This document shows, one piece after another, positions 21,419 to 48,332 of a stretch of DNA of 64,000 bases. How positions within the stretch are numbered: the first letter of the stretch is position 1; each line of letters opens with the position of its first letter. This stretch comes from an uncultured Ignavibacteriota bacterium (GTDB taxonomy: Bacteria > Bacteroidota > Ignavibacteria > UBA10030 > BY39), in the NCBI GenBank assembly GCA_947085405.1, contig CAMTWO010000013.1, positions 20,193 through 84,192 of the forward strand. The letters are read 5' to 3'. The notes under the pieces were generated by a model. It had not been told where the DNA came from, searched no databases, and saw only the letters and a list, made by a program, of their open reading frames with translations. The translations under genes and the position numbers were made by a program.

Positions 21419-21489
21419 TGCCGGGTAGTCTAATGGCAGGACAGCGGCCTTTGGAGCCGTATGTGGAGGTTCGACTCCTCCCCCGGCAG
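21419..21489 (+). tRNA. tRNA-Gln (anticodon UUG), no encoded CCA
   Basis: Hand-folded cloverleaf. Acceptor stem TGCCGGG/CCCGGCA gives a U1:A72 pair with discriminator G73; D-stem GTCT/GGAC; anticodon stem GCGGC/GCCGT with loop CTTTGGA (anticodon TTG); T-arm GGAGG-TTCGACT-CCTCC. U1:A72, G73 and U35 are E. coli tRNA-Gln identity elements. Confidence 0.7.
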
Positions 21490-29075: not shown

Positions 29076-29104
29076 TTGACATATACATTTTAATTCATTA
29101 TATT
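29076..29104 (+). promoter_or_regulatory. near-consensus sigma70-type promoter (TTGACA-N17-TATATT) for accessory operon 1
   Basis: TTGACA at 29076-29081, 17-nt spacer, TATATT at 29099-29104. About 135 nt of 5' UTR follow before ATG 29240. Confidence 0.5.
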
Positions 29105-29239: not shown

Positions 29240-32203
29240 ATGATTAAAAAATTACTAGCTTTATTTCTCACTATTCTATTAGTAACAGTTGTTACATCTG
29301 CACAAGATGGTAAGTTACGTGGTATCATCACCGATAAAACTAACGGTGAGCCCCTGATTGGTGCAACAGTGTCTCTCGAAGGCACTATGATGGGTGCAGC
29401 AAGCGATATCAATGGTGAGTTTTTCATTTTAAGTGTTCCGCCCGGAACATACAGCATAAAGACATCCTATGTCGGTTATGCTCAAGTAACAATCTCAAAC
29501 GTTCGTGTCCTCTCGAATTTTACTACTACACAAAATTTTCAACTTCTAAGCGAAGCCGTCCAAGTTGATGCAGTAGATATTTTTGCCGAACGTCCGCTTA
29601 TTCAACGAAACACAACTAACACCGTTCGGGTTACTACACAAGAAGATATCAGGAATCTCCCAATTCGTGGACTAGAAAATATTCTGAGTCTGCAAGCTGG
29701 TGTGGTAGATCAAGATAATCAACTTTATGTACGCGGTGGACGTTCAGGCGAAATTGCATATTTTGTTGATGGCGCTTCTACAACAAATCCAATTACTAAT
29801 TCACAAACATTTTCGGTAATTCAGGAAGCTGTTGAAGAACTACAATTGCAAGCCGGCGGTTATACTGCAGAATTTGGCGGTGCAAATTCCGGTATCGCAC
29901 GAACTACTCTACGCACAGGTCAAAGCAGCTATAAAGGCTCGGTCGATTTCCTAACCGATAACCTTGCTAAACCCGGTGCCGACTATCTTGGTTCATCATC
30001 GTTTGGTTACACAAATATGGTGGCTACCATAAGCGGTCCTGTGATGAAAAATTTAAAATTTTTCGTAGCTGGTCAGCATCAATTTATTAGAAATCGCAGT
30101 CTAAGGTTCATAGAACCTTTCCGTTTCGAAAATATTGTTACGGATGTAAACGATGAAGCTCCCGGTAGATCGCTCCCTGGTCCGATCGAATTCAAGAAGA
30201 ATTATATCCCCGGTAACTGGCTTCAAAATTACTCAACTCAAGGTAACCTCAATTATGAGTTACAATCAATGAAGTTCAAACTATCCGGAAGTTACACATA
30301 CGATAAATCGCCATTCGATAACAGATGGCCCACAGCTTTAACACGGTATTTCAACAAACGGTCGCGTATCGACCACAACACTACCGGATTTGCAAATTTT
30401 AGATTTACACACGTTGTTAATCCAAAAACATACTACGAAGTAGCTCTCTCTTACCAGAGTCGTTACTTCCGTCGTGTTGATCCTGATTTTGGCGACGACT
30501 GGAAATCATATACCGATAGTACTAAAAATACCGAATTAGGTTACACCGGATTCCGACGTCCTTATGCGGGCCCTTTACCTTACAGCATTATCAATGCATT
30601 TTTAATGACACACGAGAATGCACCGAATAATGCTTATTCCAAAAACCAACAAACATCTTATGGTTTTGCTGGCGACTTTACTTCTCAACTAACATCAAAT
30701 TGGGAAATAAAATTTGGTACCAGATTAGATTCATGGATCGCCCGCAATTATGCTGTTGGTAACATCCAAGGTGCAATGGAGTTTCTCTATGGTACGGACG
30801 GAAGAACACCCCGAACCTTCGCTGATGATTATGAAAGGCGTGTAAGATTATCCAAAGCCGGAACTATCAATCATTACGGCTACGATGTTGATGGTAATGA
30901 AATTAATTCAGGAATTGATGCTCCTCGAAAGCCACTTTTTGCTTCGGCTTATTTGCAAAATAAATTAGAATATCAGGACATTATACTTAATTTAGGTCTT
31001 CGTTATGAATACTTCGATACGAAGAATAAGACTTTCAAAGATCCATTACAGCCCGATTTCAACACTGATTTAGATGTTATCGACGAAACTAAATTAGAGG
31101 AAGCAAAACCGTTTAATCTCGTATTGCCTCGTGTTAGTTTTTCGTTTCCCGTTACCGATGTTACAGTATTCTATGCTATGTACGGAAAATACGCACAGAT
31201 GCCATCTTTGAATCAACTTTATATCGGAAACACAACTCTTAGCCGTACAGTCAGTCCGATAACTCGTGGAAATGCATTCTTAACTCCAGTTGGATATCTG
31301 ATGATACCCGAAAGAACGACTCAGTACGAAATGGGTATTCGGCAGTCGTTAGCTGATAATTTTGCATTTACTGTAAGTGGTTTCTACAAAGACATAAAAG
31401 ACCAATTACAAGTTCGTTCCTATGTTAATGAAGCGGGTAGCAAATTGTTTACTGCATACTTGAACGATGACTTTGGTACGATTAAGGGGTTAGAACTTAC
31501 ACTCGAACTTCGCCGAACTAACCGATTAGCTACAAAGTTTAATTACACATTATCCGATGCCCGCGGAACAGGGTCAAATTCACAATCTTCATTTGGAGCT
31601 GTTGAACAAAACATCGGACGTCCGACAAGCTTCATAAACCCACTCGATTTTAACCAAACTCATTCAGGCACATTGTTGCTTGATTATAGATTTGCTAAAG
31701 GCGATGGTGGACCGATCTTAGAACAAATGGGCGTCAATATGATACTCTCGTTCAATAGCGGACATGCATATACTAAAATAAAAGAGTTGAAAGAACTCGG
31801 ACAAGCAAACGTTTGGGACGTCGGTGTGGAACCATTGAACGATCCACGGGCAAGTTTCCCGACCGAACCACTCAACAGTTCGACAACTCCCTGGGTATAT
31901 AATATCGACCTCAACTTCAGTAAAAAGTTCAACCTTGGTGTAATCGATGCTGAATTTTATGTAAATATTATTAATTTACTCAATACAAAGGACATATTGA
32001 ACGTCTATCCAACCACCGGAACTGCCCAGGACGATGGCTGGTTAGGTAATTCGTTGGCAACACCATTCCACCAAATTCCTAACTATACCGATTTCTATAA
32101 AGCCATTAATTCACAGAACCGTTGGGCTTATATGGTGGCTACTGGAAACGATTTGTTCGGTACACCGCGTCAGGTTCGTTTTGGTCTACGGCTTGAAATA
32201 TAA
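29240..32203 (+). CDS. TonB-dependent outer-membrane receptor with N-terminal carboxypeptidase-regulatory-like domain (SusC/RagA-like architecture); paralog 1
   Basis: 987 aa. Signal peptide; KLRGIITDKTNGEPLIGATVSLEG...DINGEFFILSVPPGTYSIK (CarboxypepD_reg-like); plug region ...QRNTTNTVRVTTQEDIRNLPIRGLENILSLQAGVV...YVRGG; long beta-barrel; strong AAGGAGG RBS. Confidence 0.85.
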   Translation: MIKKLLALFLTILLVTVVTSAQDGKLRGIITDKTNGEPLIGATVSLEGTMMGAASDINGEFFILSVPPGTYSIKTSYVGYAQVTISNVRVLSNFTTTQNFQLLSEAVQVDAVDIFAERPLIQRNTTNTVRVTTQEDIRNLPIRGLENILSLQAGVVDQDNQLYVRGGRSGEIAYFVDGASTTNPITNSQTFSVIQEAVEELQLQAGGYTAEFGGANSGIARTTLRTGQSSYKGSVDFLTDNLAKPGADYLGSSSFGYTNMVATISGPVMKNLKFFVAGQHQFIRNRSLRFIEPFRFENIVTDVNDEAPGRSLPGPIEFKKNYIPGNWLQNYSTQGNLNYELQSMKFKLSGSYTYDKSPFDNRWPTALTRYFNKRSRIDHNTTGFANFRFTHVVNPKTYYEVALSYQSRYFRRVDPDFGDDWKSYTDSTKNTELGYTGFRRPYAGPLPYSIINAFLMTHENAPNNAYSKNQQTSYGFAGDFTSQLTSNWEIKFGTRLDSWIARNYAVGNIQGAMEFLYGTDGRTPRTFADDYERRVRLSKAGTINHYGYDVDGNEINSGIDAPRKPLFASAYLQNKLEYQDIILNLGLRYEYFDTKNKTFKDPLQPDFNTDLDVIDETKLEEAKPFNLVLPRVSFSFPVTDVTVFYAMYGKYAQMPSLNQLYIGNTTLSRTVSPITRGNAFLTPVGYLMIPERTTQYEMGIRQSLADNFAFTVSGFYKDIKDQLQVRSYVNEAGSKLFTAYLNDDFGTIKGLELTLELRRTNRLATKFNYTLSDARGTGSNSQSSFGAVEQNIGRPTSFINPLDFNQTHSGTLLLDYRFAKGDGGPILEQMGVNMILSFNSGHAYTKIKELKELGQANVWDVGVEPLNDPRASFPTEPLNSSTTPWVYNIDLNFSKKFNLGVIDAEFYVNIINLLNTKDILNVYPTTGTAQDDGWLGNSLATPFHQIPNYTDFYKAINSQNRWAYMVATGNDLFGTPRQVRFGLRLEI

Positions 32204-32241
32204 TATAAACATAACTCAAAATTAAAAAGGAGTTGCTAAAA

Positions 32242-35200
32242 ATGAACATAAAAAAATTAAATTTACTAACAATACTTGTTGTTGTCTTCGGCTTTTTATG
32301 CTCTACTGTTTTTGGCTCTGGGATTCCAGATAAAAACAATCGCCAAAAAGATAAGTCGTTGATGAAACCAACAGGTACACCCCTTTACCAAATTCTGAAT
32401 ATTAATAACATCACCACTTGGATGCGGTCCGATGGTCAACAAAACCATTCACCCACGAGCGATAATGGTTCATATTTTCCACGTGGAACAAAATGGGCAA
32501 TTTATCAGGACGGTTTTGTATGGGGTGGAAAAGCTTATTTAGATGCCGGTTTAACTACACCGGCACCAACACAACTTATCCGTGTTGGAGGTCAAACATA
32601 CAACATCGGTACACGTGCAGGCCGCATAATGGGCACAGGTGCTACAGCAGTAGCTCAATCTCCAGCCGATGCGGATGTTCGCATTTATCGTATTCGCCGA
32701 GATTATGGTGAAATGGGAATTCAAGATCTGCAACAGGATGCTGCCGAAAGCTTCGAAGTTCCAATTGCAAGTGTAACAAAATCGCAAACTGATCAAATAT
32801 CTGATCAATATGAAAAAGATTGGGACGAGTGGCCCGTTGCTTATGGGGCACCATTTATTGAAAGGAATGGAACTCCGGGTTACCAGAAGCCCAAACCCTT
32901 TAATTATGATAAAACTAAGGGTGCTATTTTTAATACCGATTCTCTAATTGCTCATAATTATGATGAACCGGGACTTGCCGGAGTTGATCCTAAATCACCG
33001 GCAGATCAGGTTATTTGGACTGTAATCAACGACCTCGATCGAAGTGCATCTACAGGTTTATTTGGTTCAGAGCCATTAGGTCTTGAAGCACAAATTACAT
33101 TGTGGGGTTATAAACGCACCGATGCTATGGGAAATTTATACTTTAAAAAAATTAGATTCATCAATAAAGGTGGTGTTATTACAGTCCTACCTGATACCAA
33201 AGGTTCATTCCATATCGACAGTATGTATTTTGCACAATGGTCAGACCCGGATTTAGGTTCGTACGGTGATGACCTTTGCGGTGTCGATCAACCCCTCAGC
33301 TTAGGTTTTGTTTATAATGGAAATGCTGTCGATGCCGAGTATAAAAAATTCAATCTTCCACCACCGGCTGTAGGATACGACTTTTTGCAAGGTCCATTAG
33401 TTCCTGGCGCTCCAACTGACTCAGGTGTATTCAATCTCAAAAGGGTGTATGGGAAGAAGAATCTACCAATGACATCTTTTGCATATTTCTCTGCCGGTAG
33501 TGGTATTAGCGATCCACCATTTACATACGTAGGCGGTTTAAGATGGTGGAGAATGTTGCAAGGATTTGTACCCGAAGATGCAGCTACATGGAGATTATAT
33601 CCTCATCCAACTGGTGTTACTCCTACTAAATTTCCTCTTAATGGCGATCCTGTCAAGAAAACCGGCTTCATAGACGGAGCTGGGACACCCTCGTCATTTG
33701 CCCCCGGTGATCGAAGAATAGTTCTAAATACCGGACCTTTTTCACTTGCCCCCGGTGATACACAAGAAGTCGTCGTGGGTACTGTAGCCGGTTTAGGCAG
33801 CGATCGTTTCTCAAGTATTAATGTTATGAAATTTTATGACAGGTTTGTACAAAATACATACGATGCTCTATTTCAGGTTCCAAAAGCTCCATCCTCACCT
33901 GCTTTAAAAATAGCAGAACTCGATGGCGAAGTTATTCTGGAATGGGGTAGTGATTCAACGGCTGTGCTAAAAACAGAGACTCTAATTAACCAACCTGGAG
34001 ATTATCGATTTGAAGGTTATAACGTTTATCAGTTGCCAAGTGCTTCTTCCACTTTAGCCGATGCAAAGCGTATTGCAACTTATGATTTAATAAATGATAT
34101 TCCCGTTATACTTGACGAACAATTTGATAATAGATCGGGTGAAATTTTAATGCTGCCGGTTCAATATGGAACGAATAGCGGAATTATACGTCACTTCAAT
34201 TTCGTTCGTGATCATGTTTTAGATATCAATAAACTTAATAATGGGCAAGAATATTATGTAGCCGTTACTGCATATAGTAAATCAAACATACCTGGTTATT
34301 TACCAGCATCGTTAGAATCAAAACCAACTATATTTACAGTCCGTCCACAAAGTTCGACTGCTGGAAAACGATACACTGCAAAAGTGTACGACAAAGTAGC
34401 AGTAAAACTTGTAGCAGGTTCGTCCGATATTGAACTACCAGTTAAGGTTATTGACCCGTCCAAATTATTGGATGCCACATATTCCGTCTCGTTTGAAGTG
34501 GCTGGAGGGGTTACGTCTTGGCTTCTAAAAAACAAAGAGACTGGGGCACTTTTATACAAGAGTAAAAATCTCGGTTCGTTAATGTCTGGAGTGTTGAATG
34601 ATGATTTCGAATACCCTATTATTAATGGATTCCAAGTTGTAGTCGCACAGGAATCTCCCATTATTATTGAAGATTCAACGCGATGGATTCCCCAACGACC
34701 ATCTCAGTTAGACCATGGTAATCGTTATCCGGAAGGACCACCGGTTGCGCTTAGAAGTGTTACAACTGCTGAAGACTTATCCGCTCGATTCCTGGGGCAG
34801 TTTGCTTCATCATACGATATGGCGAAGTTGAAACGTGTAGAATTACGATTTGGGACTGGGAATGGCTCCAAAGCATATCGAGTTCGTCGAACTGGTGGAG
34901 GTACAGAATATTTAATTCAAACTAACGTTATTGCTGGCGTGGCACCTAATGGTGAAGGTTTTGTTAATGTTCCGTTTAGTGCTTGGGATATGGATAATCC
35001 GGGTGGTCCACGGCAAATTACCTTGAGTTGGAGAGACCAGAGCAATGATGCACGTTGGAATCCACCAACCACAGGTGATAATGTCGAAATTATTTTTATT
35101 CATGACCGGACATACGATCCACTTGGTACTCAGTATACATATCCCACTAATCCGGATCCTGCACGTCAAGGACCGGCGATATTAAATGAGGTTACTGTGG

Positions 35201-35703
35201 GTGCGAGGGCTGATATCATGTATGGTGTTTCTTTACGTTCAGTTGGTACTCAAATCGATGGTTCTGATGCTTCGGTCAGTGTAGCAACATTATATATTAG
35301 GCCCAAGTTTGTTTTAAATGATGCGTTGGTTTACGAGTTCACTACATCAGCTCCAACGTTTTCTCAGGAACTTGCCAAAGCCGATGCAGAAAAAGTTGGC
35401 GTATATCCAAATCCTTATTATGCTTTCAATCCTGCCGAAACCAACCGGTTTGTTAGGTTTGTAACATTCAACAAATTACCTGCGAAAGCAACAATAAGAA
35501 TATTCAACTTAGCCGGTCAGTTAGTTCGTACTCTCACAAAAGAGGATCCTTCACAGTTTATGCGATGGGATCTTAATAATGAGTATAATTTCCCGGTTGC
35601 AAGCGGTATTTACGTAGCACACGTGGATATGCCTGATGTAGGAGTTACCAAGATAGTTAAGGTAGCTATAATTCAAGAACAAGAAGTTCCAGATGTATTC
35701 TAA
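32242..35703 (+). CDS. large secreted protein (~1150 aa) with T9SS C-terminal sorting domain, no recognisable catalytic motif; paralog 1 (start at ATG 32242, not the track's TTG 32233, which overlaps the RBS)
   Basis: Signal peptide MNIKKLNLLTILVVVFGFLCSTVFG. Internal Fn3-like segment (...PKAPSSPALKIAELDGEVILEWG...). C-terminus VYPNPYYAFNPAET...ATIRIFNLAGQLVRTL...SGIYVAHVDM...KIVKVAII matches the type-A T9SS CTD pattern (PNP..., I.I.N..GQ.V, GIY). Confidence 0.8.
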   Translation: MNIKKLNLLTILVVVFGFLCSTVFGSGIPDKNNRQKDKSLMKPTGTPLYQILNINNITTWMRSDGQQNHSPTSDNGSYFPRGTKWAIYQDGFVWGGKAYLDAGLTTPAPTQLIRVGGQTYNIGTRAGRIMGTGATAVAQSPADADVRIYRIRRDYGEMGIQDLQQDAAESFEVPIASVTKSQTDQISDQYEKDWDEWPVAYGAPFIERNGTPGYQKPKPFNYDKTKGAIFNTDSLIAHNYDEPGLAGVDPKSPADQVIWTVINDLDRSASTGLFGSEPLGLEAQITLWGYKRTDAMGNLYFKKIRFINKGGVITVLPDTKGSFHIDSMYFAQWSDPDLGSYGDDLCGVDQPLSLGFVYNGNAVDAEYKKFNLPPPAVGYDFLQGPLVPGAPTDSGVFNLKRVYGKKNLPMTSFAYFSAGSGISDPPFTYVGGLRWWRMLQGFVPEDAATWRLYPHPTGVTPTKFPLNGDPVKKTGFIDGAGTPSSFAPGDRRIVLNTGPFSLAPGDTQEVVVGTVAGLGSDRFSSINVMKFYDRFVQNTYDALFQVPKAPSSPALKIAELDGEVILEWGSDSTAVLKTETLINQPGDYRFEGYNVYQLPSASSTLADAKRIATYDLINDIPVILDEQFDNRSGEILMLPVQYGTNSGIIRHFNFVRDHVLDINKLNNGQEYYVAVTAYSKSNIPGYLPASLESKPTIFTVRPQSSTAGKRYTAKVYDKVAVKLVAGSSDIELPVKVIDPSKLLDATYSVSFEVAGGVTSWLLKNKETGALLYKSKNLGSLMSGVLNDDFEYPIINGFQVVVAQESPIIIEDSTRWIPQRPSQLDHGNRYPEGPPVALRSVTTAEDLSARFLGQFASSYDMAKLKRVELRFGTGNGSKAYRVRRTGGGTEYLIQTNVIAGVAPNGEGFVNVPFSAWDMDNPGGPRQITLSWRDQSNDARWNPPTTGDNVEIIFIHDRTYDPLGTQYTYPTNPDPARQGPAILNEVTVGARADIMYGVSLRSVGTQIDGSDASVSVATLYIRPKFVLNDALVYEFTTSAPTFSQELAKADAEKVGVYPNPYYAFNPAETNRFVRFVTFNKLPAKATIRIFNLAGQLVRTLTKEDPSQFMRWDLNNEYNFPVASGIYVAHVDMPDVGVTKIVKVAIIQEQEVPDVF

Positions 35704-35734: not shown

Positions 35735-36781
35735 ATGAAAAATAAATATTTATATACCGCCTTTTTAATAGGCCTTGTAATATTAGTTGTATTTAATTTT
35801 ACTGAGGCTCAAAATAAAAGGATAGGCACTGCGGCAGCCACTGAATTACTAATTCCCGTGGGTGCCCGCGATTTCGCAATGGGTGGTGCCACAATTTCAA
35901 ATACTTCCGGAGTCGAAGCAATACACTGGAATCCTGCCGGTCTCAGCTTAATAAAGTATGGTGCCGAAGGGATGTTCTCTTCCATGAATTATTTGGGAGA
36001 TATCGGTGTTAGCTACGGCGGCGTAGGTGTTTCGTTTGGCGATTTCGGTGTTGTTGGGTTAACTATAAAATCGCTTTCTTTCGGCGATATTCCACTCACC
36101 ACAAACGAAGACCCTGAAGGACTTTTAGGAAGAGTATATTCACCAACCTATTTTACTTTAGGTCTCACTTACTCTAAATCACTGACCGATGCTGTTGCGG
36201 CGGGTATTACAACTAAAATGATCTCTGAGCGAATCGACCGTGTTTCGGCTTCTGCTATCGCTTTCGATTTTGGTGTTATCTACCGTAATTTAGCTCATAT
36301 TTCCGGTTTGAATATGGGTGTAACGGTTAAAAACATCGGTACGCAAATGGCTTTTGATGGAACCGGATTGTACCGCAGCGCAACTTCAAGCGAAGGTTAT
36401 AGACCTGAACAAAGATACAAAATTCAAGCGGCAAGTTTCGAACTCCCATCTTCAATAGAAATCGGGCTTGCTTACGTTAGTACTTTGCAGGAAAATATAC
36501 ATTTTAGCTTGAACAGTACTTTTATAAATAACAATTTATACTTAGACGAATATAAACTTGGCGGTGAAATCGGATATTATCTAAGTGGTCTTAAATTGTT
36601 CGGAAGAGCCGGTATGGGTATGGTTCCACAAGCTGAAAAAGATGCAAATATTTTCGGCGGTACATTCGGCGCTGGTATTGCTTATTCTGCCCCAGGTGTT
36701 GATATTATCGTCGATTATGCATACAGACAAACCGATTTCTTCGACGGGAATAATGTATTATCCATCAAACTTGGTTTTTAA
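35735..36781 (+). CDS. PorV/FadL-like 14-strand outer-membrane beta-barrel (T9SS shuttle-like); paralog 1
   Basis: 348 aa. Signal peptide, then IGTAAATELLIPVGARDFAMGGA...EAIHWNPAGL (FadL/PorV-type N-terminal motif). Alternating beta-strand pattern; C-terminal ...SIKLGF ends in Phe (OMP beta-signal). Confidence 0.6.
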   Translation: MKNKYLYTAFLIGLVILVVFNFTEAQNKRIGTAAATELLIPVGARDFAMGGATISNTSGVEAIHWNPAGLSLIKYGAEGMFSSMNYLGDIGVSYGGVGVSFGDFGVVGLTIKSLSFGDIPLTTNEDPEGLLGRVYSPTYFTLGLTYSKSLTDAVAAGITTKMISERIDRVSASAIAFDFGVIYRNLAHISGLNMGVTVKNIGTQMAFDGTGLYRSATSSEGYRPEQRYKIQAASFELPSSIEIGLAYVSTLQENIHFSLNSTFINNNLYLDEYKLGGEIGYYLSGLKLFGRAGMGMVPQAEKDANIFGGTFGAGIAYSAPGVDIIVDYAYRQTDFFDGNNVLSIKLGF

Positions 36782-36806
36782 ATAATTCCCAAAAGTAACA
36801 CGTTTA

Positions 36807-36840
36807 AAAGGCTGACTTTTTTAAGTCAGCCTTTTTTTTA
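36807..36840 (+). terminator. rho-independent terminator of accessory operon 1
   Basis: AAAAGGCTGACTT-tttt-AAGTCAGCCTTTTTTTT. Confidence 0.65.
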
Positions 36841-36905
36841 TAATTGACTGAAGTTACTCGAAATTGACTTTTTGTCGCGTTGAGGATACTTTAATAGGTG
36901 TTACC

Positions 36906-37042
36906 TATTTCTCTTTTGAAAATGACAATCCTTGATATCTTAATTGTCTCCGTAGGAGACATATGTTTGTAGTAATGCGTTGTAGATGCGCCCACGACCC
37001 CAGAGGGGTCGAATGTCTTGTCATTAGGAGCGAAGAGAAATA
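36906..37042 (+). ncRNA. candidate structured RNA or MITE-like element: nested inverted repeats enclosing two GC-rich hairpins
   Basis: Outer 10-bp IR TATTTCTCTT (36906-15) / AAGAGAAATA (37033-42). Inner 8-bp IR AATGACAA (36921-28) / TTGTCATT (37018-25). Hairpins TGTCTCC-gta-GGAGACA (36945-61) and CGACCCC-aga-GGGGTCG (36995-37011). No ORF. Two further hairpins at 37076-37100 and 37106-37122. Confidence 0.3.
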
Positions 37043-37167
37043 TCTAAAAAACGCTTGAATTTCGTGCATTAGATTCTTCATCCACCTTTGGCGGATGAAG
37101 AATGATCCCGCAAAATGCGGGACGTAACTTCAGATATTAACGAAATATAATCTTAACTCTTTTCATT

Positions 37168-39453
37168 ATGACGAAACCAAAATCATTTTATATATTACTT
37201 TTAAGCTCTCTTATCTTGGCAGTTGCTAATCTCTTCCCAAACAATAAACCGGATGATGATTTATACCAGAGTTGCATCGATATAAAATCGGGTTTAAATG
37301 TGCTGAACATCTCTTTAAAACCGGGATACGAAGATCTCTCGGCACTTGCTTATTATCGGTTTGGGCAAGGAGCAAAAATAATGAGTGCCTATCTTACAAA
37401 TGGTGAGTGCACTGAAGCTGATTCGAGTTATTATTTTCCCCATCAGATAGCCGCAAAATTGAGACAAGAAAGTTTTGCCGCAATATCAGCACTGAAAGGA
37501 GAGACTTACTATCTCTCGTTTCCCGAAATAATATCAGCTCAGAATGATGAAAAAATATATTCGCTTTGGAATGAAGATTCACTAAAAAATAAACTATATA
37601 ATTTAATTTCTACTTTCAAACCCGACGTGATATTATTATCACGCGATTGGTATTACGGAAATAAAAACCGTTCAATTGAAATACTTATAGATAAAATTGT
37701 GGAAGTGATTTCAGAAAATCATAAGGATGGAAGTTGGAAAGTATCACGTTTTTATTATGATGACCCATCAAAAAAAGGAATTAAAATTCCAGTCGATACA
37801 AAAGATTCAAGGCGCAAAAAATCGTATCGCAAAATTGGTGAAGATGCAAGGGAACATTACAACTCAATTTCACTTCAATTAGAAAAATTAAAGAGCGGGA
37901 ACGTTCCAAGTTACTCTTTAATATTTCCTTCAAAGACTAAAAAACTGAATAATATAATTGCCGGTATCCCAAGTTATGATACGAAAAAGCTGAAGAAGTT
38001 CAAGAAAGACATAGATAATTTAGCAAACGCGGTATTGAAAAACCAAAAATATGTATTAAAATATTTATCAAAATTATCGGATTCGGTTAATACTCATTTA
38101 TCATATCGAATGAATCTTACTCAAGCAGAATACAAAATATTCTTGAATTGGAAAATAAATTTAGATAAAATAAGGAATGAGTTATTAGGAGTAAAACTAT
38201 ATTATACAATCAGCGAAACAATTTTAACAAACCGCCAATTAACTATTTTACAGATAGATTCTGTAACTGGCTTATCTAAAAACGGAACAACAGAATTATT
38301 TTTTCCCGGTGTAGATGATGATTGGGTCATCAACGAAAGTAATCAAAAGAGGCAACCACTGGTAATAGGACAGGAGTATCGCATTTTATCGCCGGCAAAC
38401 CTCGAATATAGCTATCCCTACGAGATTTATAATTTGGATAAACCATATCTTAAAAATCAGTTTTATTTTTTTGTTATTCATTCCTCAAATGTTAAGGAAG
38501 AAAATTTTGTTTATAAGCAGATAATCCATTTCGATTTCGCACCTCGCTTTACAACCGAAATAGTAACGCCATTAGTATTTGCTCCGTTAGCTAACGGAGA
38601 CAACGAAAAATTGATCTTCCGGTTGACAAATCATTCGAGAGATGGATTCGCAGACTATGTTACAGCGTCTGATAGCGCATTAGTAAGTTCCGATACTATA
38701 AATGTGAAGCTTAGTTATAAAGGAGCGGAGTATTTAGATACATTGAGTTTATTTTTTAAACAGGGGATTCAGGTTGGCGATAATCTCTTGAAATTAAAAA
38801 TCGGTGGTGAAGCTGTTGCCAATTTTGTTGCCCGGCGATATGATATAGCTGTTGATCACACGAAAAGAGTAGGGTTGATTTCTTCGCAGACGAATTCGAT
38901 AACTAAATTAACATTACAAAGACTTAATGTAAAATTTGTAGAACTGAACGACATGAACTTATTACAAACCTATGTAAATAATTTAGATGTAATAATTATT
39001 GATAGAAATTCTACAGATAAACTGAAATCTTTTAAGAATTTAATTGAACCCTTTGTGGCTGCGGGTGGAAACCTAATTGTGTTATCTCAGGATAATAGTT
39101 TTTGGGATTCATCGAAACTGTTTAGCGATATAAAATTAACCCGGTCGTTCATTTATGATGAAAACTCACTTGTTCAAATAGATTCTAACCATAGCATACT
39201 AAATACCCCCAATAAAATTAGCGGAGCAGATTTTGAAAATTGGATTTATGCTCGAACTTCAAATGAAGTAAGTATTACTTCAACAAAAGAAATAGAATTT
39301 CCGATAATGTCATCAATCGACAAAACACCCCTTATAGTAACCCAAAAGTATTTAAAAGGCACAGTTATTTATGTGAATATGGCATTACAGTATCAATTAT
39401 TGAACCTACAGGAGGGGGCGTATAAAATATTAGCGAACCTCATCTCGTTTTGA
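37168..39453 (+). CDS. secreted hypothetical protein with degenerate LmbE/PIG-L-like N-terminal region and GATase1/ThuA-like C-terminal region
   Basis: 761 aa; signal peptide. VLNISLKPGYEDLSALAYYRFGQGAKIMSAYLTNGE aligns to the LmbE motif (HPDDE...G.GG...TLTDGE) but His/Asp ligands are replaced (KPGYED). C-terminal ...DVIIIDRNSTD...FVAAGGNLIVLSQD resembles class-I glutamine-amidotransferase-like folds. No Shine-Dalgarno before the ATG. Confidence 0.7.
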   Translation: MTKPKSFYILLLSSLILAVANLFPNNKPDDDLYQSCIDIKSGLNVLNISLKPGYEDLSALAYYRFGQGAKIMSAYLTNGECTEADSSYYFPHQIAAKLRQESFAAISALKGETYYLSFPEIISAQNDEKIYSLWNEDSLKNKLYNLISTFKPDVILLSRDWYYGNKNRSIEILIDKIVEVISENHKDGSWKVSRFYYDDPSKKGIKIPVDTKDSRRKKSYRKIGEDAREHYNSISLQLEKLKSGNVPSYSLIFPSKTKKLNNIIAGIPSYDTKKLKKFKKDIDNLANAVLKNQKYVLKYLSKLSDSVNTHLSYRMNLTQAEYKIFLNWKINLDKIRNELLGVKLYYTISETILTNRQLTILQIDSVTGLSKNGTTELFFPGVDDDWVINESNQKRQPLVIGQEYRILSPANLEYSYPYEIYNLDKPYLKNQFYFFVIHSSNVKEENFVYKQIIHFDFAPRFTTEIVTPLVFAPLANGDNEKLIFRLTNHSRDGFADYVTASDSALVSSDTINVKLSYKGAEYLDTLSLFFKQGIQVGDNLLKLKIGGEAVANFVARRYDIAVDHTKRVGLISSQTNSITKLTLQRLNVKFVELNDMNLLQTYVNNLDVIIIDRNSTDKLKSFKNLIEPFVAAGGNLIVLSQDNSFWDSSKLFSDIKLTRSFIYDENSLVQIDSNHSILNTPNKISGADFENWIYARTSNEVSITSTKEIEFPIMSSIDKTPLIVTQKYLKGTVIYVNMALQYQLLNLQEGAYKILANLISF

Positions 39454-39666: not shown

Positions 39667-42600
39667 ATGATTATTAAAAAGTTACTATTTCTTTTTATTT
39701 TGCTCTTTATAGTTGTATCCATAAGTTTTGCTCAAACAACAGGTAAGCTAAATGGTAAAATTATCGATAAAGAGTCGCGAGAAGCTCTCATCGGTGTTAA
39801 CGTTATGCTCGAAGGCACAACGCTTGGAACCGTTACCGATGTAGATGGAAATTACATAATGTTAAATGTTCCTGTCGGCACTTATAATTTAATTGTGCGA
39901 TACGTAGGTTACCGGGAAGTTACAGTGAAAAACTTAAAATCGATGGTGAGTTTTACAACAACTCAAAACATAGAGTTGAGTTCCGAAGCTGTAGAACTCA
40001 AGGAAGTTGTGATCTCAGCGGAGCGGCCCCTAATACCCAAAGACCAGACTGGGACTGTTCGTGTTGTAACCTCAGAGCAAATTCAATTAATGCCGGTACG
40101 TGGTATCAGGGAAATGGCAGCTACTACTGCTGGTGTTGTGCAGGGTGAAAGAGGCGGCGAACTTAATATCCGGGGTGGTCGGTCAGAAGAAACAGGTTAC
40201 ATTGTCGATGGTGTTTGGACGAATAATCCTTTAACAGGTGGCTCAACTGCTTTTGTCAGTCAACGAGCAATTCAAGAAATGATAGTGATGACCGGTGGAT
40301 ATAGCGCCGAATACGGAAACGTGATGAGTGGTATTGTTAACGTCTCCACAAAATCCGGTAAACCAAATTATTTCGGTAGTTTTGAATATGTAACAGATGG
40401 ATTTCTGGGTGATGGAGTACAAGGGTGGCGAAATAATGGTTACCAATTGTATAATTTAGCATTTGGCGGACCTGTTATTCCTTCTAATAAAAACATTTTA
40501 CAATTCTTTGGCTCTTTTGAATATACATTTAACAGAGATCCAAATCCAAGTTACAACTCTGAAAGACTCAGCGACCTTTCTAATAGTATTTGGCCCAAAT
40601 TTAAGGAAGTAACAGTAAATTATATTCAAGAAGGTCTTCAAAGACTACCCAAACTGCCGAGTGAAGAAATTGATAAACGAGCTAAAGAATTATTATTAGA
40701 CCAACCGAATTGGAATTTAGCACGTCCTGGTCAAATGCCAGATGGTGCTTCGCTACGTCTTGCTTGGAACGAAAAATTAACTGCTAATTTAGGAGACTTC
40801 CGTGTTAATTTGGGTGGTATATCCTCGAGAACGTGGGCTCGTTCAAGGGTGTTCAGCTATACTTTGATGAATGCGTTCCACAATCCAATGACAAATTCAG
40901 TCAACGACCAATATACTTTACGAGTTACCTGGGCACCTCAACCAAAGACATTTGCTGAAATTCAGGGAAGTTATTTTTACACTTATTCTGATTACATGGA
41001 TCCTGTCCATGAAGATAGAGTCTTCGATTATGGAGATCCTGCAAAAAACCCCCTCTTCTTCAATTATTTTCCTCCGGGGGTAGATCCCAGCCAGTTGAGA
41101 GCATCAAGAATTCCGATGGATACATATTTAGGGATGTTTGCTTATCCAGGTCGGGTGTATAATGGATATGGATTTAATAAAACAACATTTTGGCAATTTA
41201 ACGCAAACGTAACTCATCAATTGGGTGAACACGAAATTAAATTAGGTGGTGAGTATAAAATCCATCAATTGCGCGCTTATGCAATAGGGCCTCTTAGTTT
41301 AGCTTTATTGCGACCGGGTATAATCGATACGTTACGGAATGGGTTGTATGATCAATTAACAGTAGCACAAAAATCTTACGTTCTTAAAGAATATGCATCA
41401 CGAGGTATCAATACTTATGGTTATGATTATTTCGGTCGGGAAGTTGATTATGACGGATACGTTAAGAGTGAACGGAGTGAAGGTCCCAAAGAACCTATCT
41501 TCGGCGCTTTGTATTTACAAGATAAAATGGAATACCAAGATTTTATTGTAAATGCCGGACTCAGATTTGATTATTGGGATTCTAACACGGATGTATTAAA
41601 AGATTTATACGATGTTGCTAATAGTAAAAATACTACACAATATGGATCACCAGAAAACTTTAAGCGATTGTTTCCAAATAAATCAGTTCCAGCAGATGGT
41701 TGGGGAAATCCAAACAAAATTGAGGACGACAGTTTTGAAGAATCAAAGCCATTCCTGATATTCAGCCCAAGGTTAGGCTTCTCTTTCCCCGTCTCTGAAA
41801 GAATGGTATTTTTTGCTCAATATGGGACATTCGCACAGATGCCCCCACTTTCGAACCTTTATATGAGTTCCGACAGGCTGCGCGAATGGTATTTAGCCCC
41901 CGGCTATTTTTCAATAAATAATCCTCGATTACGACCTCAAAAAACTACTCAATACGAATTAGGTATTCGTCAGCAATTAGGTGAAGTAGCAAGCTTAAAT
42001 ATTACAGCTTACTACAAAGAAATTACTGGACTTATTCAATTAGGTGTCATTGAATCACGTTGGAACAATACGACCTTCTCAACTCTTCAAAATGGTGATT
42101 ACTCGACTGTACGCGGATTTGATCTATCATTTGATTCACGGCGTTGGAATAATTTAGCTGCTTCTGTAAACTATACATTGTCGTATGCAACAGGTACAGG
42201 TTCCGATCCCGGCACGTTAGGCACAATTCTTTGGTTGAATGCGAGAGCTCCAAAATTTGAATCCCCACTCGATTTCGATCAGCGTCACACAATTGCTGCA
42301 ACATTAGATTACCGTTTCGGAAAAATGGATAATGTATTTTTAAATCAACTCGGTATGAATTTATTATTCAGAAGTAACAGCGGTAGGCCCTATACACTAA
42401 ATGATCCAAGTATTCCACCAACCGACTCACGAATAAAACCTCAATCAACAATTAACGCTAATTACAGCGATTGGAATTTTAGGTTCGATTACCGAATTGA
42501 TAAAACTTTTGAATTACCTATTTCCAATATGAGGTTGAATACTTATATATTAATTTTGAATTTGCTGGACAGAAAAAATATTGCTAGCGTATGGGCTGGT

Positions 42601-42789
42601 TCAGGTCAACCTGATCAAACTGGATATACTCAAACCCCGGATTTCAAAGCAACAATCCAGAGAATGATCGAACAAGATAGAGCTGATGAAGTACCTGTTT
42701 TCACCGGAATATATAATATGTACGAGATGCAACCGAGCTTCGTAGGTGCACCTCGGCAAGTCAGATTTGGACTTATTTTAGAATTTTAA
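39667..42789 (+). CDS. TonB-dependent outer-membrane receptor with N-terminal carboxypeptidase-regulatory-like domain; paralog 2
   Basis: 1040 aa. KLNGKIIDKESREALIGVNVMLEG...VDGNYIMLNVPVGTYNL; plug ...TGTVRVVTSEQIQLMPVRGIREMAATTAGVV...NIRGG; C-terminal ...APRQVRFGLILEF. Co-linear with 29240..32203. Confidence 0.85.
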   Translation: MIIKKLLFLFILLFIVVSISFAQTTGKLNGKIIDKESREALIGVNVMLEGTTLGTVTDVDGNYIMLNVPVGTYNLIVRYVGYREVTVKNLKSMVSFTTTQNIELSSEAVELKEVVISAERPLIPKDQTGTVRVVTSEQIQLMPVRGIREMAATTAGVVQGERGGELNIRGGRSEETGYIVDGVWTNNPLTGGSTAFVSQRAIQEMIVMTGGYSAEYGNVMSGIVNVSTKSGKPNYFGSFEYVTDGFLGDGVQGWRNNGYQLYNLAFGGPVIPSNKNILQFFGSFEYTFNRDPNPSYNSERLSDLSNSIWPKFKEVTVNYIQEGLQRLPKLPSEEIDKRAKELLLDQPNWNLARPGQMPDGASLRLAWNEKLTANLGDFRVNLGGISSRTWARSRVFSYTLMNAFHNPMTNSVNDQYTLRVTWAPQPKTFAEIQGSYFYTYSDYMDPVHEDRVFDYGDPAKNPLFFNYFPPGVDPSQLRASRIPMDTYLGMFAYPGRVYNGYGFNKTTFWQFNANVTHQLGEHEIKLGGEYKIHQLRAYAIGPLSLALLRPGIIDTLRNGLYDQLTVAQKSYVLKEYASRGINTYGYDYFGREVDYDGYVKSERSEGPKEPIFGALYLQDKMEYQDFIVNAGLRFDYWDSNTDVLKDLYDVANSKNTTQYGSPENFKRLFPNKSVPADGWGNPNKIEDDSFEESKPFLIFSPRLGFSFPVSERMVFFAQYGTFAQMPPLSNLYMSSDRLREWYLAPGYFSINNPRLRPQKTTQYELGIRQQLGEVASLNITAYYKEITGLIQLGVIESRWNNTTFSTLQNGDYSTVRGFDLSFDSRRWNNLAASVNYTLSYATGTGSDPGTLGTILWLNARAPKFESPLDFDQRHTIAATLDYRFGKMDNVFLNQLGMNLLFRSNSGRPYTLNDPSIPPTDSRIKPQSTINANYSDWNFRFDYRIDKTFELPISNMRLNTYILILNLLDRKNIASVWAGSGQPDQTGYTQTPDFKATIQRMIEQDRADEVPVFTGIYNMYEMQPSFVGAPRQVRFGLILEF

Positions 42790-42815: not shown

Positions 42816-45800
42816 ATGAAAATAAAATTTTTATTGGTGTTTCTATTTGCTTTGTCCTTCTCATTGGGATATTCATTGGATATTGAATCTTCTAGAAAGG
42901 CTGCTCTAGGACCACACAAGCCAATGATTATCGAACGAAAAGCTATGGATATTAATACCATTAATGCTTGGTTCCGAAATGAGGGTGAGTTTTATAGCGA
43001 CCACAAAACTACTGGTCCTGGTTTTGAGTGGCCCAAAGGTGGAAAAGTTCACGCTATTTTTTCTTCGTCAATGTGGATTGGAGCGAGAGTAGTTAACCCT
43101 GAAGATACAACTAAAAAGGATATCCGGGTTGCTACAGTTGGTCATTTTGGTTCAGAGCACCGTCCGGGTATAATTTTACCAGACGGTACTGCTGACGATT
43201 TTACCCGCCCGAAATATCGATATTATCGGGTGCGTCCTAACGAAGATTCTCCTCGCACGAGTGCCGATTATGCGGAATGGCCTGCTGAAGACGGCGCACC
43301 TTTTCACGATGTTGACAAAGATGGTATATATAATCCAAATGTAGATAAACCAGCATTAGTCTGGGGAGACCAAATAGTTTACCCGGATATGTTGATGTTT
43401 GCGGTTTACAATGATGCTGAAGAAGCTTATCATAATTGGATTTGGGGGAGAAGTAAACCATTAGGTGCTGAAATCCGGCAGACATCGTGGGCCTATAATC
43501 GTGCAGGACCGTTCGGTCAAATGCAATTTATGAAGTTTGAAGTTATTAACAAAAGTAACGCTCCATGGGATTCTGCTTATTTGGTAGTATGGTCCGATCC
43601 AGATATGGGAGATGCTTTTGATGATGCTTCAGGCGTCGATACAACAATCGTCAATCCTAGAACAAAAGAAAAACGGAATTTAGGTTATGTTTATAATGGT
43701 ACGAATACTGATGCGGGTTATGGAACAGCTCCACCGGCTGTTGGTTATAAATATTTTCAAGGACCCCGCTTAAAAACCGATCTTATTACTGATACTGCAA
43801 AGTGGTCGGGGCAATTGCTACCTGGTTATAAAAATTTAAATGTTTCCGGGTTCAATTTTTATTGTAACCCTGGACAAGGTGGCTGCACGAATCCTGATTG
43901 GTATGACCCGTTCTTATTTTTGCAATCTTATAATGTTATGCAAGGTCTAACTCGTACCGGCAGAAGATGGGTATGTGAAGGCGATACAACTTATTTTATG
44001 TTCGCCGGAGACCCTGTTACAAACACAGGTTGTACCTACTCAGACTTACTGCAACCCTCTGATGTTAGATTTACTTTACCGGCTGGTCCTTTCACAATTA
44101 TGCCTGGTGATACACAACAAGTAGTAATAGGTATAATTGTTGGAAGAGGCTCTAATAACTTAAATAGTATTAGCGTATTACGCACCTATGCCGATATGTC
44201 GCAAATATTATTTAACAATAATTTTAAGTTACCTCCTGCTCCACCAAGCCCTAAAGTTGAGCACAGCTGGATTGATGGAAAAATAATTTTATCCTGGGAC
44301 AAAGACAAAGCATCAAGAACTTTCAGGAACCCGGATGAAAAATTCTTTAACACTGTCTGGAAATTTAATGCATTTACTATTTATCAAACTAACGATCCAC
44401 TTCTAAGACCCGGTGCACGTACTGAAAAACTTGGAACATACTATAAAAAAGGTGATTCGTCGAAAGTGAAAGATTTTGTTATATTCCCAGGAGTTGACGA
44501 CCCCGTCCTGGCCACTATTTGGGAAGGTGATTTTGAAGGTATAATAGATCAACTCGTTTTAACAGAGGATCGAATCAATTCTAAACCATTTATACCGGGA
44601 AGACCTTATCACTTCATCATTACTGCCTCTGCAGTTGATTCTAATTATAACCCTTTAGATTCAGCAAGAATTAAAGACCTAAGCGGATTGATTTTATTAG
44701 AATCACCGAAAAATGTAATTACAATAATACCAAAAAATCCTGTTCTTGGGACTGAGTTTCCGAGTGGTAACGATTATGGTTCTGTTATTCCTCATAATAA
44801 GTGGAAATCTCTTAAAAATTATGACGATGCAGTTCAAGTGAAAGTTGTTGATCCGTGGCGAACTGAAAATAAGAAGTATCGAATTACATTACAAGGTAAT
44901 GACCCATCAAATACATTAAATGTAACTTCTTGGTCACTACTTGAATTGAATTCAAATAATGAAGTAGTTGATACTGTAATTGCAAATTATAATAATTTTA
45001 ACGGAGGGACTGATTATCCTGTGGTGTCAAACGTTATGCCTGTTGTACAAAATTTACCTATTGGAGTCAGGCGGCGTTTTCAGGTACCATCTGGTTTCTC
45101 ATACCAAGGGAAACGTTGGTTTACAGGTTTGAGAGGACCCCAGATGGATGATACATTAGCTTCAATACAAATTACACCAACTCGACGAGCACCTGTAACT
45201 GGTGTTGTTTCATATCCACAAATAGGTAGATACACAAACGCAATTACAGGTTTACGCCCGGATAGCTTACGGCGTGTTGAAATTCGTTTTTCAAAAACAA
45301 ATACACAAAAAGCATATAGATATGTCACTGGTTTTGAGATTAGGCCGATAAAAGGCCCGATTCATTCAGAATTTAGACCATATTTAGTAGATTCTACTGG
45401 ATTCGGCTATTTATATCAGGATTACCAACAATATAGGATGGGTATTCAGGACAGTGGTTATGTCGTACCGTTTACCGTTTGGGAAGTTGATTCTTTATAC
45501 GGAGATGGGAAACCACGACAATTGGATGTTGCGATAGTTGAAAGAAACGATTCGATGCGTGTCGTCCGAAAAGATATTTATGGAAGAGATAGCATTGTTC
45601 ATGTTTACAGAGGTAAAATTGACGCAAAATGGGATCCTTCTCCCTATACCGGTGAAAATCATTCTGAAGGTGATGAAGTAATTTTGGTATTCCGCTCTTC
45701 TTACTCAGATACTGCGAAACCAGAGTACACTAAAAAAGATAGAGATTACAAAGATTTCGAGTTTAAAAATTTGCCTTTAATGTACATTATAGTAATGCGC

Positions 45801-46298
45801 AAAGTAAATGAACAATCAAATTTTGCTGATGGAGATGTTATCGCCATCCGGCCTAACTATGCTTTAAATACAGACAAAATTTTTGAGTTCGAAGTTAAAG
45901 CTCCACAAGTAGGCTTTTCAGAAATCGCGAAACAGCGTGACGAGATGCGCAAAATTAAAATTGTTCCAAATCCGTACTATGCATCTCATCAACTGCAGGC
46001 TGATCCATTTGATAGTTATGTAACCTTTACCAATCTTCCTACCAGAGCAAAGATTAGAATTTTTAATTTAGCTGGTGATATGGTAGCGGTTGTAAATCAC
46101 GACTACCAAGGACAAATGGATAACAGCTCTACACGTTGGGGTCTCAAAAATCACGCCAATATTCCTGTAGCAAGTGGAATGTATATTGCACATATCGAAG
46201 GTTATGGACTTGATGAGCATGGAGGGGAAGTGAAAATAGGTGAAAAGGTGTTGAAGTTTGCAATATTCATACAAGAAGAACGACTTGACACATTCTAA
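42816..46298 (+). CDS. large secreted protein (~1160 aa) with T9SS C-terminal sorting domain; paralog 2
   Basis: Signal peptide MKIKFLLVFLFALSFSLG. Shares blocks with 32242..35703 (PPAVGYKYFQGP / PPAVGYDFLQGP; FTIMPGDTQQVVIGIIVGRGSN / FSLAPGDTQEVVVGTVAGLGSD; LPPAPPSPKVEHSWIDGKIILSWD). C-terminus IVPNPYYA...AKIRIFNLAGDMVAVV...SGMYIAHIEG...KVLKFAIF is a T9SS CTD. Confidence 0.8.
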   Translation: MKIKFLLVFLFALSFSLGYSLDIESSRKAALGPHKPMIIERKAMDINTINAWFRNEGEFYSDHKTTGPGFEWPKGGKVHAIFSSSMWIGARVVNPEDTTKKDIRVATVGHFGSEHRPGIILPDGTADDFTRPKYRYYRVRPNEDSPRTSADYAEWPAEDGAPFHDVDKDGIYNPNVDKPALVWGDQIVYPDMLMFAVYNDAEEAYHNWIWGRSKPLGAEIRQTSWAYNRAGPFGQMQFMKFEVINKSNAPWDSAYLVVWSDPDMGDAFDDASGVDTTIVNPRTKEKRNLGYVYNGTNTDAGYGTAPPAVGYKYFQGPRLKTDLITDTAKWSGQLLPGYKNLNVSGFNFYCNPGQGGCTNPDWYDPFLFLQSYNVMQGLTRTGRRWVCEGDTTYFMFAGDPVTNTGCTYSDLLQPSDVRFTLPAGPFTIMPGDTQQVVIGIIVGRGSNNLNSISVLRTYADMSQILFNNNFKLPPAPPSPKVEHSWIDGKIILSWDKDKASRTFRNPDEKFFNTVWKFNAFTIYQTNDPLLRPGARTEKLGTYYKKGDSSKVKDFVIFPGVDDPVLATIWEGDFEGIIDQLVLTEDRINSKPFIPGRPYHFIITASAVDSNYNPLDSARIKDLSGLILLESPKNVITIIPKNPVLGTEFPSGNDYGSVIPHNKWKSLKNYDDAVQVKVVDPWRTENKKYRITLQGNDPSNTLNVTSWSLLELNSNNEVVDTVIANYNNFNGGTDYPVVSNVMPVVQNLPIGVRRRFQVPSGFSYQGKRWFTGLRGPQMDDTLASIQITPTRRAPVTGVVSYPQIGRYTNAITGLRPDSLRRVEIRFSKTNTQKAYRYVTGFEIRPIKGPIHSEFRPYLVDSTGFGYLYQDYQQYRMGIQDSGYVVPFTVWEVDSLYGDGKPRQLDVAIVERNDSMRVVRKDIYGRDSIVHVYRGKIDAKWDPSPYTGENHSEGDEVILVFRSSYSDTAKPEYTKKDRDYKDFEFKNLPLMYIIVMRKVNEQSNFADGDVIAIRPNYALNTDKIFEFEVKAPQVGFSEIAKQRDEMRKIKIVPNPYYASHQLQADPFDSYVTFTNLPTRAKIRIFNLAGDMVAVVNHDYQGQMDNSSTRWGLKNHANIPVASGMYIAHIEGYGLDEHGGEVKIGEKVLKFAIFIQEERLDTF

Positions 46299-47382: not shown

Positions 47383-47420
47383 AGGGTTGTTCTTTTTTGA
47401 GAGCAACCCTTTTATATTTT
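47383..47420 (+). terminator. rho-independent terminator of accessory operon 2
   Basis: AGGGTTGTTC...GAGCAACCCT (one mismatch) followed by TTTTATATTTT. Confidence 0.55.
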
Positions 47421-47434
47421 ACACAGATTGACGA

Positions 47435-48308: not shown

Positions 48309-48332
48309 CATTAACAAAGAGAGAGAATAATT

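Follow-up and report, generated by a model that had tools for sequence, protein, structure and literature searches.

We analyzed a 64,000-nt stretch of DNA from an uncultured Ignavibacteriota bacterium (assembly GCA_947085405.1, contig CAMTWO010000013.1, positions 20,193 to 84,192 of the forward strand; hereafter the window) that contains two three-gene operons of the same design. Each encodes, in this order, a TonB-dependent receptor-like protein, a large protein of ~1,160 aa that ends in a T9SS (type IX secretion system) C-terminal domain (CTD), and a small outer-membrane barrel of the PorV/PorQ family. In the reading that we favor, and that we hold to be somewhat better than an even bet, the barrel is a PorQ-like dedicated docking partner in the outer membrane, and probably also the carrier that picks up its client at the translocon, for the large protein encoded just upstream. 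The operons point to a surface complex in Ignavibacteria and related phyla and not to a general secretion shuttle. The six genes are:

29240..32203, + strand: receptor-like outer-membrane protein 1, 987 aa, in which CarboxypepD_reg at the N-terminus is followed by a Plug domain and a 22-strand-type barrel
32233..35703, + strand: large protein 1, putatively at the surface, 1,156 aa when read from a TTG, with a signal peptide, a conserved beta-rich body and no Pfam domain
35735..36781, + strand: PorV/PorQ-family barrel 1, 348 aa, with a signal peptide, an N-terminal hatch with WNPAG, 14 strands and a C-terminal Phe
39667..42789, + strand: receptor-like outer-membrane protein 2, 1,040 aa (PF00593 99.6 bits, Plug 42.3 bits)
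42816..46298, + strand: large protein 2, putatively at the surface, 1,160 aa, with the same type of CTD as protein 1 and the tail FIQEERLDTF
46323..47363, + strand: PorV/PorQ-family barrel 2, 346 aa, assigned by its NF033709 score and by 43% identity to barrel 1

A first-pass annotation of the window had singled out the two barrel genes as PorV/FadL-like copies, and both open reading frames are present at the positions and lengths that it gave. Their translations share a signal peptide, the motifs ELLIPVG and AIHWNPAGL (WNPAG at aa 65–69 in barrel 1 and aa 66–70 in barrel 2) and a C-terminal Phe; of the motif between these two, given as GMGG/MSGS, only GMGG needs correction, barrel 1 reading AMGG, and barrel 2 has GMSGS at this place. 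The homologues number more than 1,700 each for barrel 1, barrel 2 and large protein 1, and their names in the databases are limited to "PorV/PorQ family protein" or "T9SS type A sorting domain-containing protein". The NCBIfam model for the PorV/PorQ family, NF033709, scored 142.0 bits with barrel 1 and 170.2 bits with barrel 2 (cut-off 90), and 147–183 bits with eight related barrels. Given the number of homologues and the family scores, both barrels are real genes and not chance reading frames.

Within the family, the barrels fall outside each of the named groups. Among the three equivalog models, PorQ (NF033711) came closest with 80.4 and 80.0 bits, far below its cut-off of 220; PorV (NF033710) gave 62.4 and 67.9 bits against a cut-off of 250 and covered the N-terminal half only; and PorV2 (NF052325) gave 54.6 and 78.1 bits against a cut-off of 325. 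The Pfam PorV model PF19572 was marginal, with barrel 1 just above the cut-off of 27 (29.6 bits) and barrel 2 below it (23.3 bits). Neither barrel matched the PorP/SprF models, either PF11751 at E <= 10 or TIGR03519 in NCBIfam at E <= 0.01. For Toluene_X (PF03349, gathering score 29.7), which would assign the barrels to FadL/TodX, barrel 2 reached only 20.6 bits and barrel 1 gave no match. No canonical PorV or PorQ was present among the eight neighboring or distant barrels that we scored. The barrels are thus PorQ-sized members of the PorV/PorQ family that make up a subfamily of their own, and they are not PorV, PorQ, PorV2, PorP/SprF or FadL.

The structural comparisons agree with the family assignment. 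The sole sequence match of the barrel in the PDB is PorV of Flavobacterium johnsoniae (E 5.6e-8 from the single sequence), and a profile of 40 sequences from the barrel family aligned to PorV chain 6h3i_F with E 1.5e-15. In the AlphaFold2 (AF2) model of barrel 1 (pLDDT 82, pTM 0.77), a helical hatch segment with the NPA motif of the FadL family comes first, and 14 long strands follow. In a Foldseek search, the best matches of this model were the PorV chains 8gl6_F and 6h3i_F from SprA translocon structures (TM 0.67–0.68), followed by BamG, TodX and FadL (TM 0.46–0.56). At 43% identity, barrel 2 is expected to have the same fold. The predicted extracellular loops are as conserved as the strands (majority-residue fraction 0.75 vs. 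0.71), which is unusual for the loops of an outer-membrane protein. The FadL/PorV-like description in the first-pass annotation is therefore upheld on the PorV side, by the family models and by the 14-stranded model of barrel 1, which is closest to PorV, with neither FadL proper nor PorP/SprF recovered.

Each barrel gene follows its own T9SS-CTD protein of ~1,160 aa, as the annotation had noted, and starts 24–31 bp after it with a Shine–Dalgarno sequence of its own in both units. What the annotation missed is the receptor gene that opens each operon, together with the wide conservation of the whole unit. Both triplets are bracketed by an identical promoter-like site on the 5' side, called by consensus match only, and a strong terminator-like hairpin 3' of the barrel:

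29076..29104, + strand: promoter-like site of operon 1, TTGACA-17-TATATT, matching the consensus at 11 of 12 positions, its hexamers recurring before operon 2
36806..36835, + strand: terminator-like hairpin of operon 1, a stem of 13 bp with a run of T after it, set 25 bp past the barrel stop codon
39490..39518, + strand: promoter-like site of operon 2, TTGACA-17-TATATT, a consensus match
47383..47410, + strand: terminator-like hairpin of operon 2, a stem of 12 bp with a run of T after it, set 20 bp past the barrel stop codon

We found neither a riboswitch nor another known regulatory RNA in the operon leaders. Between the two units, the barrels are 43%, the large proteins 26% and the receptors 30–41% identical; the two triplets are ancient paralogues, from an old duplication of the entire unit.

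The arrangement is kept far beyond this genome. Scanning species-representative genomes, we found at least 552 loci, in metagenome-assembled genomes labeled Ignavibacteria, KSB1, Marinimicrobia, Calditrichaceae and others. We retrieved 86 loci, searched them with custom hidden Markov models (HMMs) and ran the synteny test on the 68 barrels that had 3.8 kb or more of DNA upstream. In 66 of these 68, the gene immediately before the barrel, on the same strand, codes for a large protein, and a receptor gene precedes the large-protein gene wherever the contig extends far enough. Three more barrel subfamilies keep this gene order. A genome has two to three diverged units, every one with a receptor of its own, and in loci with two units all three genes fall into the matching paralogue type. 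It is against this background that ordinary FadL-type channels for fatty acids or hydrocarbons, adjoining secreted proteins by chance and with no functional link to them, become a highly improbable explanation of the barrels. The fold of the FadL superfamily, the NPA motif in the hatch and the sub-threshold Toluene_X signal of barrel 2 are what one would expect of such channels, but Toluene_X is below its cut-off or absent where the PorV family is clear, and chance adjacency does not give an operon structure, the co-duplication of three genes or a synteny that holds across phyla in 66 of 68 loci. The synteny and the HMM scores together effectively refute it.

The receptors belong to the TonB-dependent receptor family, with plug and barrel domains above the gathering scores in both. 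Receptor 1 scored 94.2 bits with PF00593 (cut-off 27), 30.9 bits with Plug PF07715 (cut-off 23.9) and 62.6 bits with CarboxypepD_reg, all above cut-off. Neither is a SusC/RagA protein: TIGR04056 gave 61.7 and 84.3 bits against a cut-off of 368, and in the N-terminal region only. Between the N-terminal domain and the plug, candidate TonB-box-like sequences, EVVISAERP and VDIFAERP, can be read by eye.

One further feature lies at the C-terminus of the large protein:

35383..35700, + strand: PorZ-type CTD (aa 1051–1145) and tail IIQEQEVPDVF (aa 1146–1156) of large protein 1, from TIGR04183 and the PorZ model

The CTDs of the large proteins had been described as type A-like. This stands in so far as large protein 1 carries a type A sorting domain by TIGR04183 (26.4 bits at the C-terminus, cut-off 23), but the domain is not the generic one, being PorZ-like and followed by an extra conserved tail. 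The C-terminus of large protein 1 matched the end of the PorZ model with E 1e-9 and that of large protein 2 with E 9e-5; the latter has no TIGR04183 match at E <= 0.01 yet aligns to protein 1 throughout the CTD. No match to the type-B CTD model was found in the large proteins. The CTD of PorZ, that is, the last ~90 columns of the model, was matched by 23 of 23 family members (best E 6.9e-12), and 22 of the 23 also matched the type-A model. Ordinary CTD cargos from the same loci behave differently: none of 10 matched PorZ, and their type-A scores are higher, at 27–45 bits. While the ordinary cargos end in ...KKMLLLK, the large proteins run 9 residues further, to ...AIIQEQEVLDV[F/Y] or, among the paralogues, to variants such as FIQEERLDTF. 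Of 77 distinct proteins encoded next to a barrel, 75 have this acidic, aromatic-ended tail (74 by a redefined pattern plus one obvious miss; a stricter first pattern gave 17 of 77); among 16 ordinary cargos none has it, and each has Lys as its last residue. An exhaustive search for the CTD and tail returned 220 representative clusters at E <= 1e-30, with the match always C-terminal.

The CTD and tail form the most conserved region of the large protein (majority-residue fraction 0.78–0.81). No part of the unit evolves more slowly than the CTD, and such conservation is unusual for a disposable signal; it suggests that the CTD may be retained, with no cleavage. The abundance of ordinary type-A cargos in related loci implies that these lineages have a working T9SS.

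The rest of the large protein is less informative about its role. Outside the CTD, we found no Pfam or NCBIfam domain in it and no sequence match in the PDB, and the AF2 model of large protein 1 (pLDDT 82) is beta-rich and multi-domain, with no informative global fold match. Large protein 2 is 26% identical to it over the full length (E 1e-86), the CTD being best conserved. The open reading frame of large protein 1 was called from the TTG at 32233, where an AGGAG ends at 32232 and an ATG follows 9 nt downstream at 32242. Because an identical database protein (P0121) has 1,153 aa and Met4 is invariant in the homologues, the true start is probably the ATG at 32242, giving 1,153 aa. Between very close strains, one part of the body diverges strongly:

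34333..35382, + strand: hypervariable block of large protein 1, aa ~701–1050, from the strain comparison and the conservation profile

The block at aa 701–1050 is only 12–46% identical between strains whose receptors and barrels are 93–97% and whose CTDs are 90–100% identical, and it has the lowest majority-residue fraction of the protein (0.41 vs. 0.66–0.78 elsewhere). An exposed region that is under diversifying selection or has its cassettes replaced, for instance under pressure from phages or predators or for ligand specificity, could show this pattern.

We considered three known identities for the large protein and rejected each. With ~1,160 aa, a CTD that it keeps and a gene directly upstream of porV, the sortase PorU would suit in size and gene order. 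However, in 60 homologues of the protein upstream of the barrel no Cys and no His is invariant, and for this reason the protein is not a PorU-type sortase; no peptidase model matched it, the PorU model NF033707 matched 7 of 23 family members and in the CTD alone, and Foldseek aligned it to chain 6za2 with TM 0.06. A PorZ orthologue was dismissed since only the last ~90 columns of the model match, with 37.5 bits vs. 260. Finally, the NCBIfam models PorV2 (NF052325) and "T9SS-dependent M6-like inactivated metalloprotease" (NF052323) recall our barrel and its partner by their names only, which suggest a further paralogue in the PorV family and a particular large protein with a type-A CTD, the pairing of the two models being itself a presumption; the window barrels fail PorV2, and beyond the shared CTD the large protein aligned to an M6-domain protein with an hhalign probability of 0.1%.

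The T9SS offers precedents for a barrel that serves one protein. PorQ is a paralogue of PorV dedicated to PorZ, PorV retains PorU, and a review has proposed "cognate PorV-like barrels" (PMC10947112, PMC10202324, PMC12365241). In Porphyromonas gingivalis, the CTDs of PorZ and PorU are left uncleaved and anchor the proteins on PorQ and PorV, respectively (PMC12365241, PMC10202324). The PorQ–PorZ complex forms without PorV or PorU, and it has been proposed that PorZ passes directly from the translocon to PorQ (PMC10947112). These examples bear on two statements of the first-pass annotation. Its premise, that PorV is a single shared shuttle, is incomplete, and its proposal that the barrels are cargo-specific shuttles or anchors survives as the best reading, given synteny in 66 of 68 loci and the co-divergence of barrel and CTD; with PorQ–PorZ and PorV–PorU as precedents, dedicated barrels of the PorV family are not a new logic.

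Of the known systems, PorQ–PorZ is among the nearest to what we see. In both there is a PorV-family barrel of ~340 aa whose partner has a CTD matching that of PorZ, PorQ being also the best of the equivalog models; and the dedication of one barrel to one CTD protein with a retained and docked CTD, which is the case in PorQ–PorZ, would hold for the window pairs too. The PorQ-sized barrel, the slow-evolving CTD of PorZ type, the conserved loops and the strict adjacency all fit the PorQ–PorZ model. The differences are that the partner in the window is ~400 aa longer, with a hypervariable block and an extra C-terminal tail, and that the genes are adjacent, in one operon with a TonB-dependent receptor and present in several diverged copies per genome. 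In P. gingivalis, porQ and porZ are not known to be adjacent. PorV itself is the closest solved fold and the sole sequence match in the PDB, but the window barrels fail its equivalog model and are ~50 aa shorter.

The PorP/SprF proteins, such as SprF for SprB, resemble the window barrels in genetic logic: a dedicated barrel gene lies immediately downstream of the cargo gene, and the cognate carrier anchors the cargo (PMC12365241, PMC10202324). Here, however, the barrel is of another family and the CTD of another class, with no type-B match. SusC–SusD shares the receptor architecture (CarboxypepD_reg, plug and barrel) and the position of the receptor gene directly upstream of a gene for a surface protein. 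It differs in that our receptors are not SusC/RagA, that the partner is a T9SS-tagged protein of 1,160 aa in place of a SusD lipoprotein, and that the window units have a third component, the barrel; a physical complex in the window units is presumed. We found no description in the literature of the three-gene operon, of its CTD subtype or of a link between such a CTD and a TonB-dependent receptor.

We then compared the distance matrices of the components across 54 complete triplets. The correlation with the barrel was highest for the receptor (rho 0.90), followed by the body of the large protein (0.84), its CTD (0.83) and the variable block (0.29), and the tail variants sort by barrel cluster. 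That the receptor co-diverges with the barrel most tightly raises the main alternative, which we regard as rather unlikely, that the barrels are accessory barrels of the TonB-dependent receptor. The receptor would then be their primary partner, as BamA is for the FadL-like BamG, and the barrel would be a general platform for a surface accessory protein or a FadL-type lateral channel for a hydrophobic ligand, with only a secondary link to the CTD. BamG packs against BamA, and its loops bind BamH, a lipoprotein at the surface (PMC12578637). Like the window barrels, BamG is a 14-stranded barrel of the FadL superfamily, there holding a surface protein, and its chain 9hiv_F was the third-best fold match. 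The retained hatch with the NPA motif and the weak Toluene_X and BamG signals in barrel 2 and relatives are of the same tenor. On the other hand, the similarity to BamG is low (TM 0.46), the window barrels have no match to the BamG model and their relatives reach 22–25 bits vs. 250, and BamH is a lipoprotein and not a CTD protein. The score for the PorV family is far above that for FadL (142–170 vs. 0–21 bits) and the fold is closest to PorV. The special CTD, moreover, is limited to barrel-adjacent proteins and is their most conserved region, which would be hard to explain if the barrel ignored it.

Several observations nevertheless weigh against a PorQ-like docking partner, and some of them speak for an accessory barrel. 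The co-divergence of the barrel with the receptor (0.90) is as strong as that with the CTD or stronger, so that genomics does not separate the two as the primary partner. One locus (L036, 13496–18466) contains an 855-aa TonB-dependent receptor, two paralogous lipoproteins of ~200 aa (lipobox LSCKEP) and a PorV-family barrel but no CTD protein; receptor and barrel are kept here while the two lipoproteins replace the CTD protein, and the barrel is thus not strictly a CTD partner. Orphan barrels also occur (L042, L087). Last, the window barrels fail the PorQ model and their partner is not PorZ outside the CTD.

In the PorQ-like docking model that we prefer, the unit would be assembled as follows. 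Since all three proteins have signal peptides, they would cross the inner membrane by Sec, after which the receptor and the barrel would be inserted into the outer membrane. The CTD of the large protein would not be cleaved; instead, the CTD and its acidic, aromatic-ended tail would remain attached to the barrel of the same unit, at its conserved extracellular loops, in the way that PorZ is held on PorQ and PorU on PorV. The large beta-rich protein would thereby be held beside the co-encoded TonB-dependent transporter with its hypervariable block distal to the membrane, and the three proteins would form a surface complex that captures and imports a ligand, a T9SS-assembled counterpart of SusC–SusD. 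We infer the retention of the CTD, the physical docking, the surface location, the association with the receptor and the import function. The invariant presence of the receptor gene and the presumably exposed hypervariable block suggest that the tethered protein may be the capture or import partner of the TonB-dependent transporter.

The surroundings of the operons are conserved to varying degrees. Positions 1–28300 of the window hold the rpoB/rpoC region and a ribosomal-protein cluster ending in rpoA–rplQ, with one tRNA at 21419–21489; with these genes alongside, the units lie in a core chromosomal neighborhood, an arrangement shared with GCA_037442955.1. A conserved gene lies between the two operons:

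37168..39453, + strand: secreted neighbor of 761 aa, with PIG-L deacetylase and DUF7408 signals, both just below cut-off

A protein of ~760 aa with a weak PIG-L signal follows type-1 units in most loci and across phyla. In the window, the gene is probably transcribed separately from operon 1, because a gap of 386 bp and the terminator after barrel 1 lie between them. The spacer after the terminator (36840–37160) has further GC-rich hairpins at 36945–36961 and 36995–37011 and, on the minus strand, at 37123–37105, and Rfam gave no family at the gathering threshold for this spacer. The PIG-L-like protein could process an imported GlcNAc-containing ligand in the periplasm, or it could modify glycans.

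Other neighbors vary with the type of unit. Proteins with a GWxTD domain (PF20094), for which we found no literature, are often encoded after units other than type 1 and recur directly downstream of units in four loci (L088 10237–11604, L089 8917–10236, L090 10142–11518 and L005 14583–15950); in comparison with L005 the second unit of the window occupies the place of the GWxTD gene, between the PIG-L and NHL genes. In one barrel subfamily (L066 2415–4565, L070 1730–4036, L071 11015–13393 and L086 2105–4396), the gene directly downstream of the barrel encodes a protein of ~720–790 aa whose CTD is of the ordinary type A and ends in K and whose N-terminus has no recognizable domain. We had considered such CTD proteins of ~770 aa as homologues of the PIG-L-like neighbor and rejected this, as the two are unrelated. 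In another genome (L087 1056–12018, GCA_003327435.1), three PorV/PorQ-family barrels lie within 12 kb; the orphan among them stands after a 314-aa gene (no Pfam match on record) in place of the NHL-repeat gene of the window and before ssb, and at the syntenic position the window has no barrel (47397–48758).

Such a setting might be expected of core machinery. In this case the barrel–CTD pairs would be the lineage's own core T9SS attachment components, equivalents of PorQ–PorZ or PorV–PorU that serve all cargos, and the receptor-like gene would be a mere conserved neighbor. The unit is indeed near-universal and highly conserved in these phyla and placed beside housekeeping operons, its CTD is PorZ-like, the eight barrels scored included no canonical PorV or PorQ, and a glycan deacetylase of PIG-L type is a conserved neighbor. 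We still consider this decidedly unlikely. The large protein has neither a propeller-type PorZ match outside the CTD nor the invariant Cys and His of a PorU-type sortase, a strain-hypervariable block is atypical of core components, and genomes carry two to three diverged units, each with a receptor, in a tight operon that is kept across phyla.

With each barrel taken as a PorQ-like partner of its own large protein, we tentatively, and at less than even odds, extend the model to the wider group. Members of the FCB group other than Bacteroidia (Ignavibacteria, KSB1, Calditrichia and Marinimicrobia) may build a tripartite machine in the outer membrane, in which a TonB-dependent transporter is joined by a large surface protein, exported by the T9SS and hypervariable between strains at its tip, and by a PorQ-like barrel of its own that holds this protein permanently by a distinct, uncleaved CTD subtype. 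If true, this would be a T9SS-dependent counterpart of SusC–SusD, and it would add a third class of T9SS signal beside type A, which is cleaved and shuttled by PorV, and type B, which is carried by PorP/SprF. Knowledge of the T9SS rests almost wholly on two Bacteroidota models, and the unit bears on the question of how certain CTD proteins avoid being cleaved and remain on their barrel, as PorZ does on PorQ and PorU on PorV. The hundreds of natural barrel–CTD pairs with co-varying sequences provide a dataset for mapping the docking interface, and a PorZ-like CTD followed by the tail may serve as a sequence rule that predicts retention. The model would also link the T9SS to TonB-dependent uptake in phyla that are without studies of SusD-type partners or T9SS function, and it gives a testable role to two large protein families whose annotation so far goes no further than "PorV/PorQ family protein" and "T9SS type A sorting domain-containing protein".

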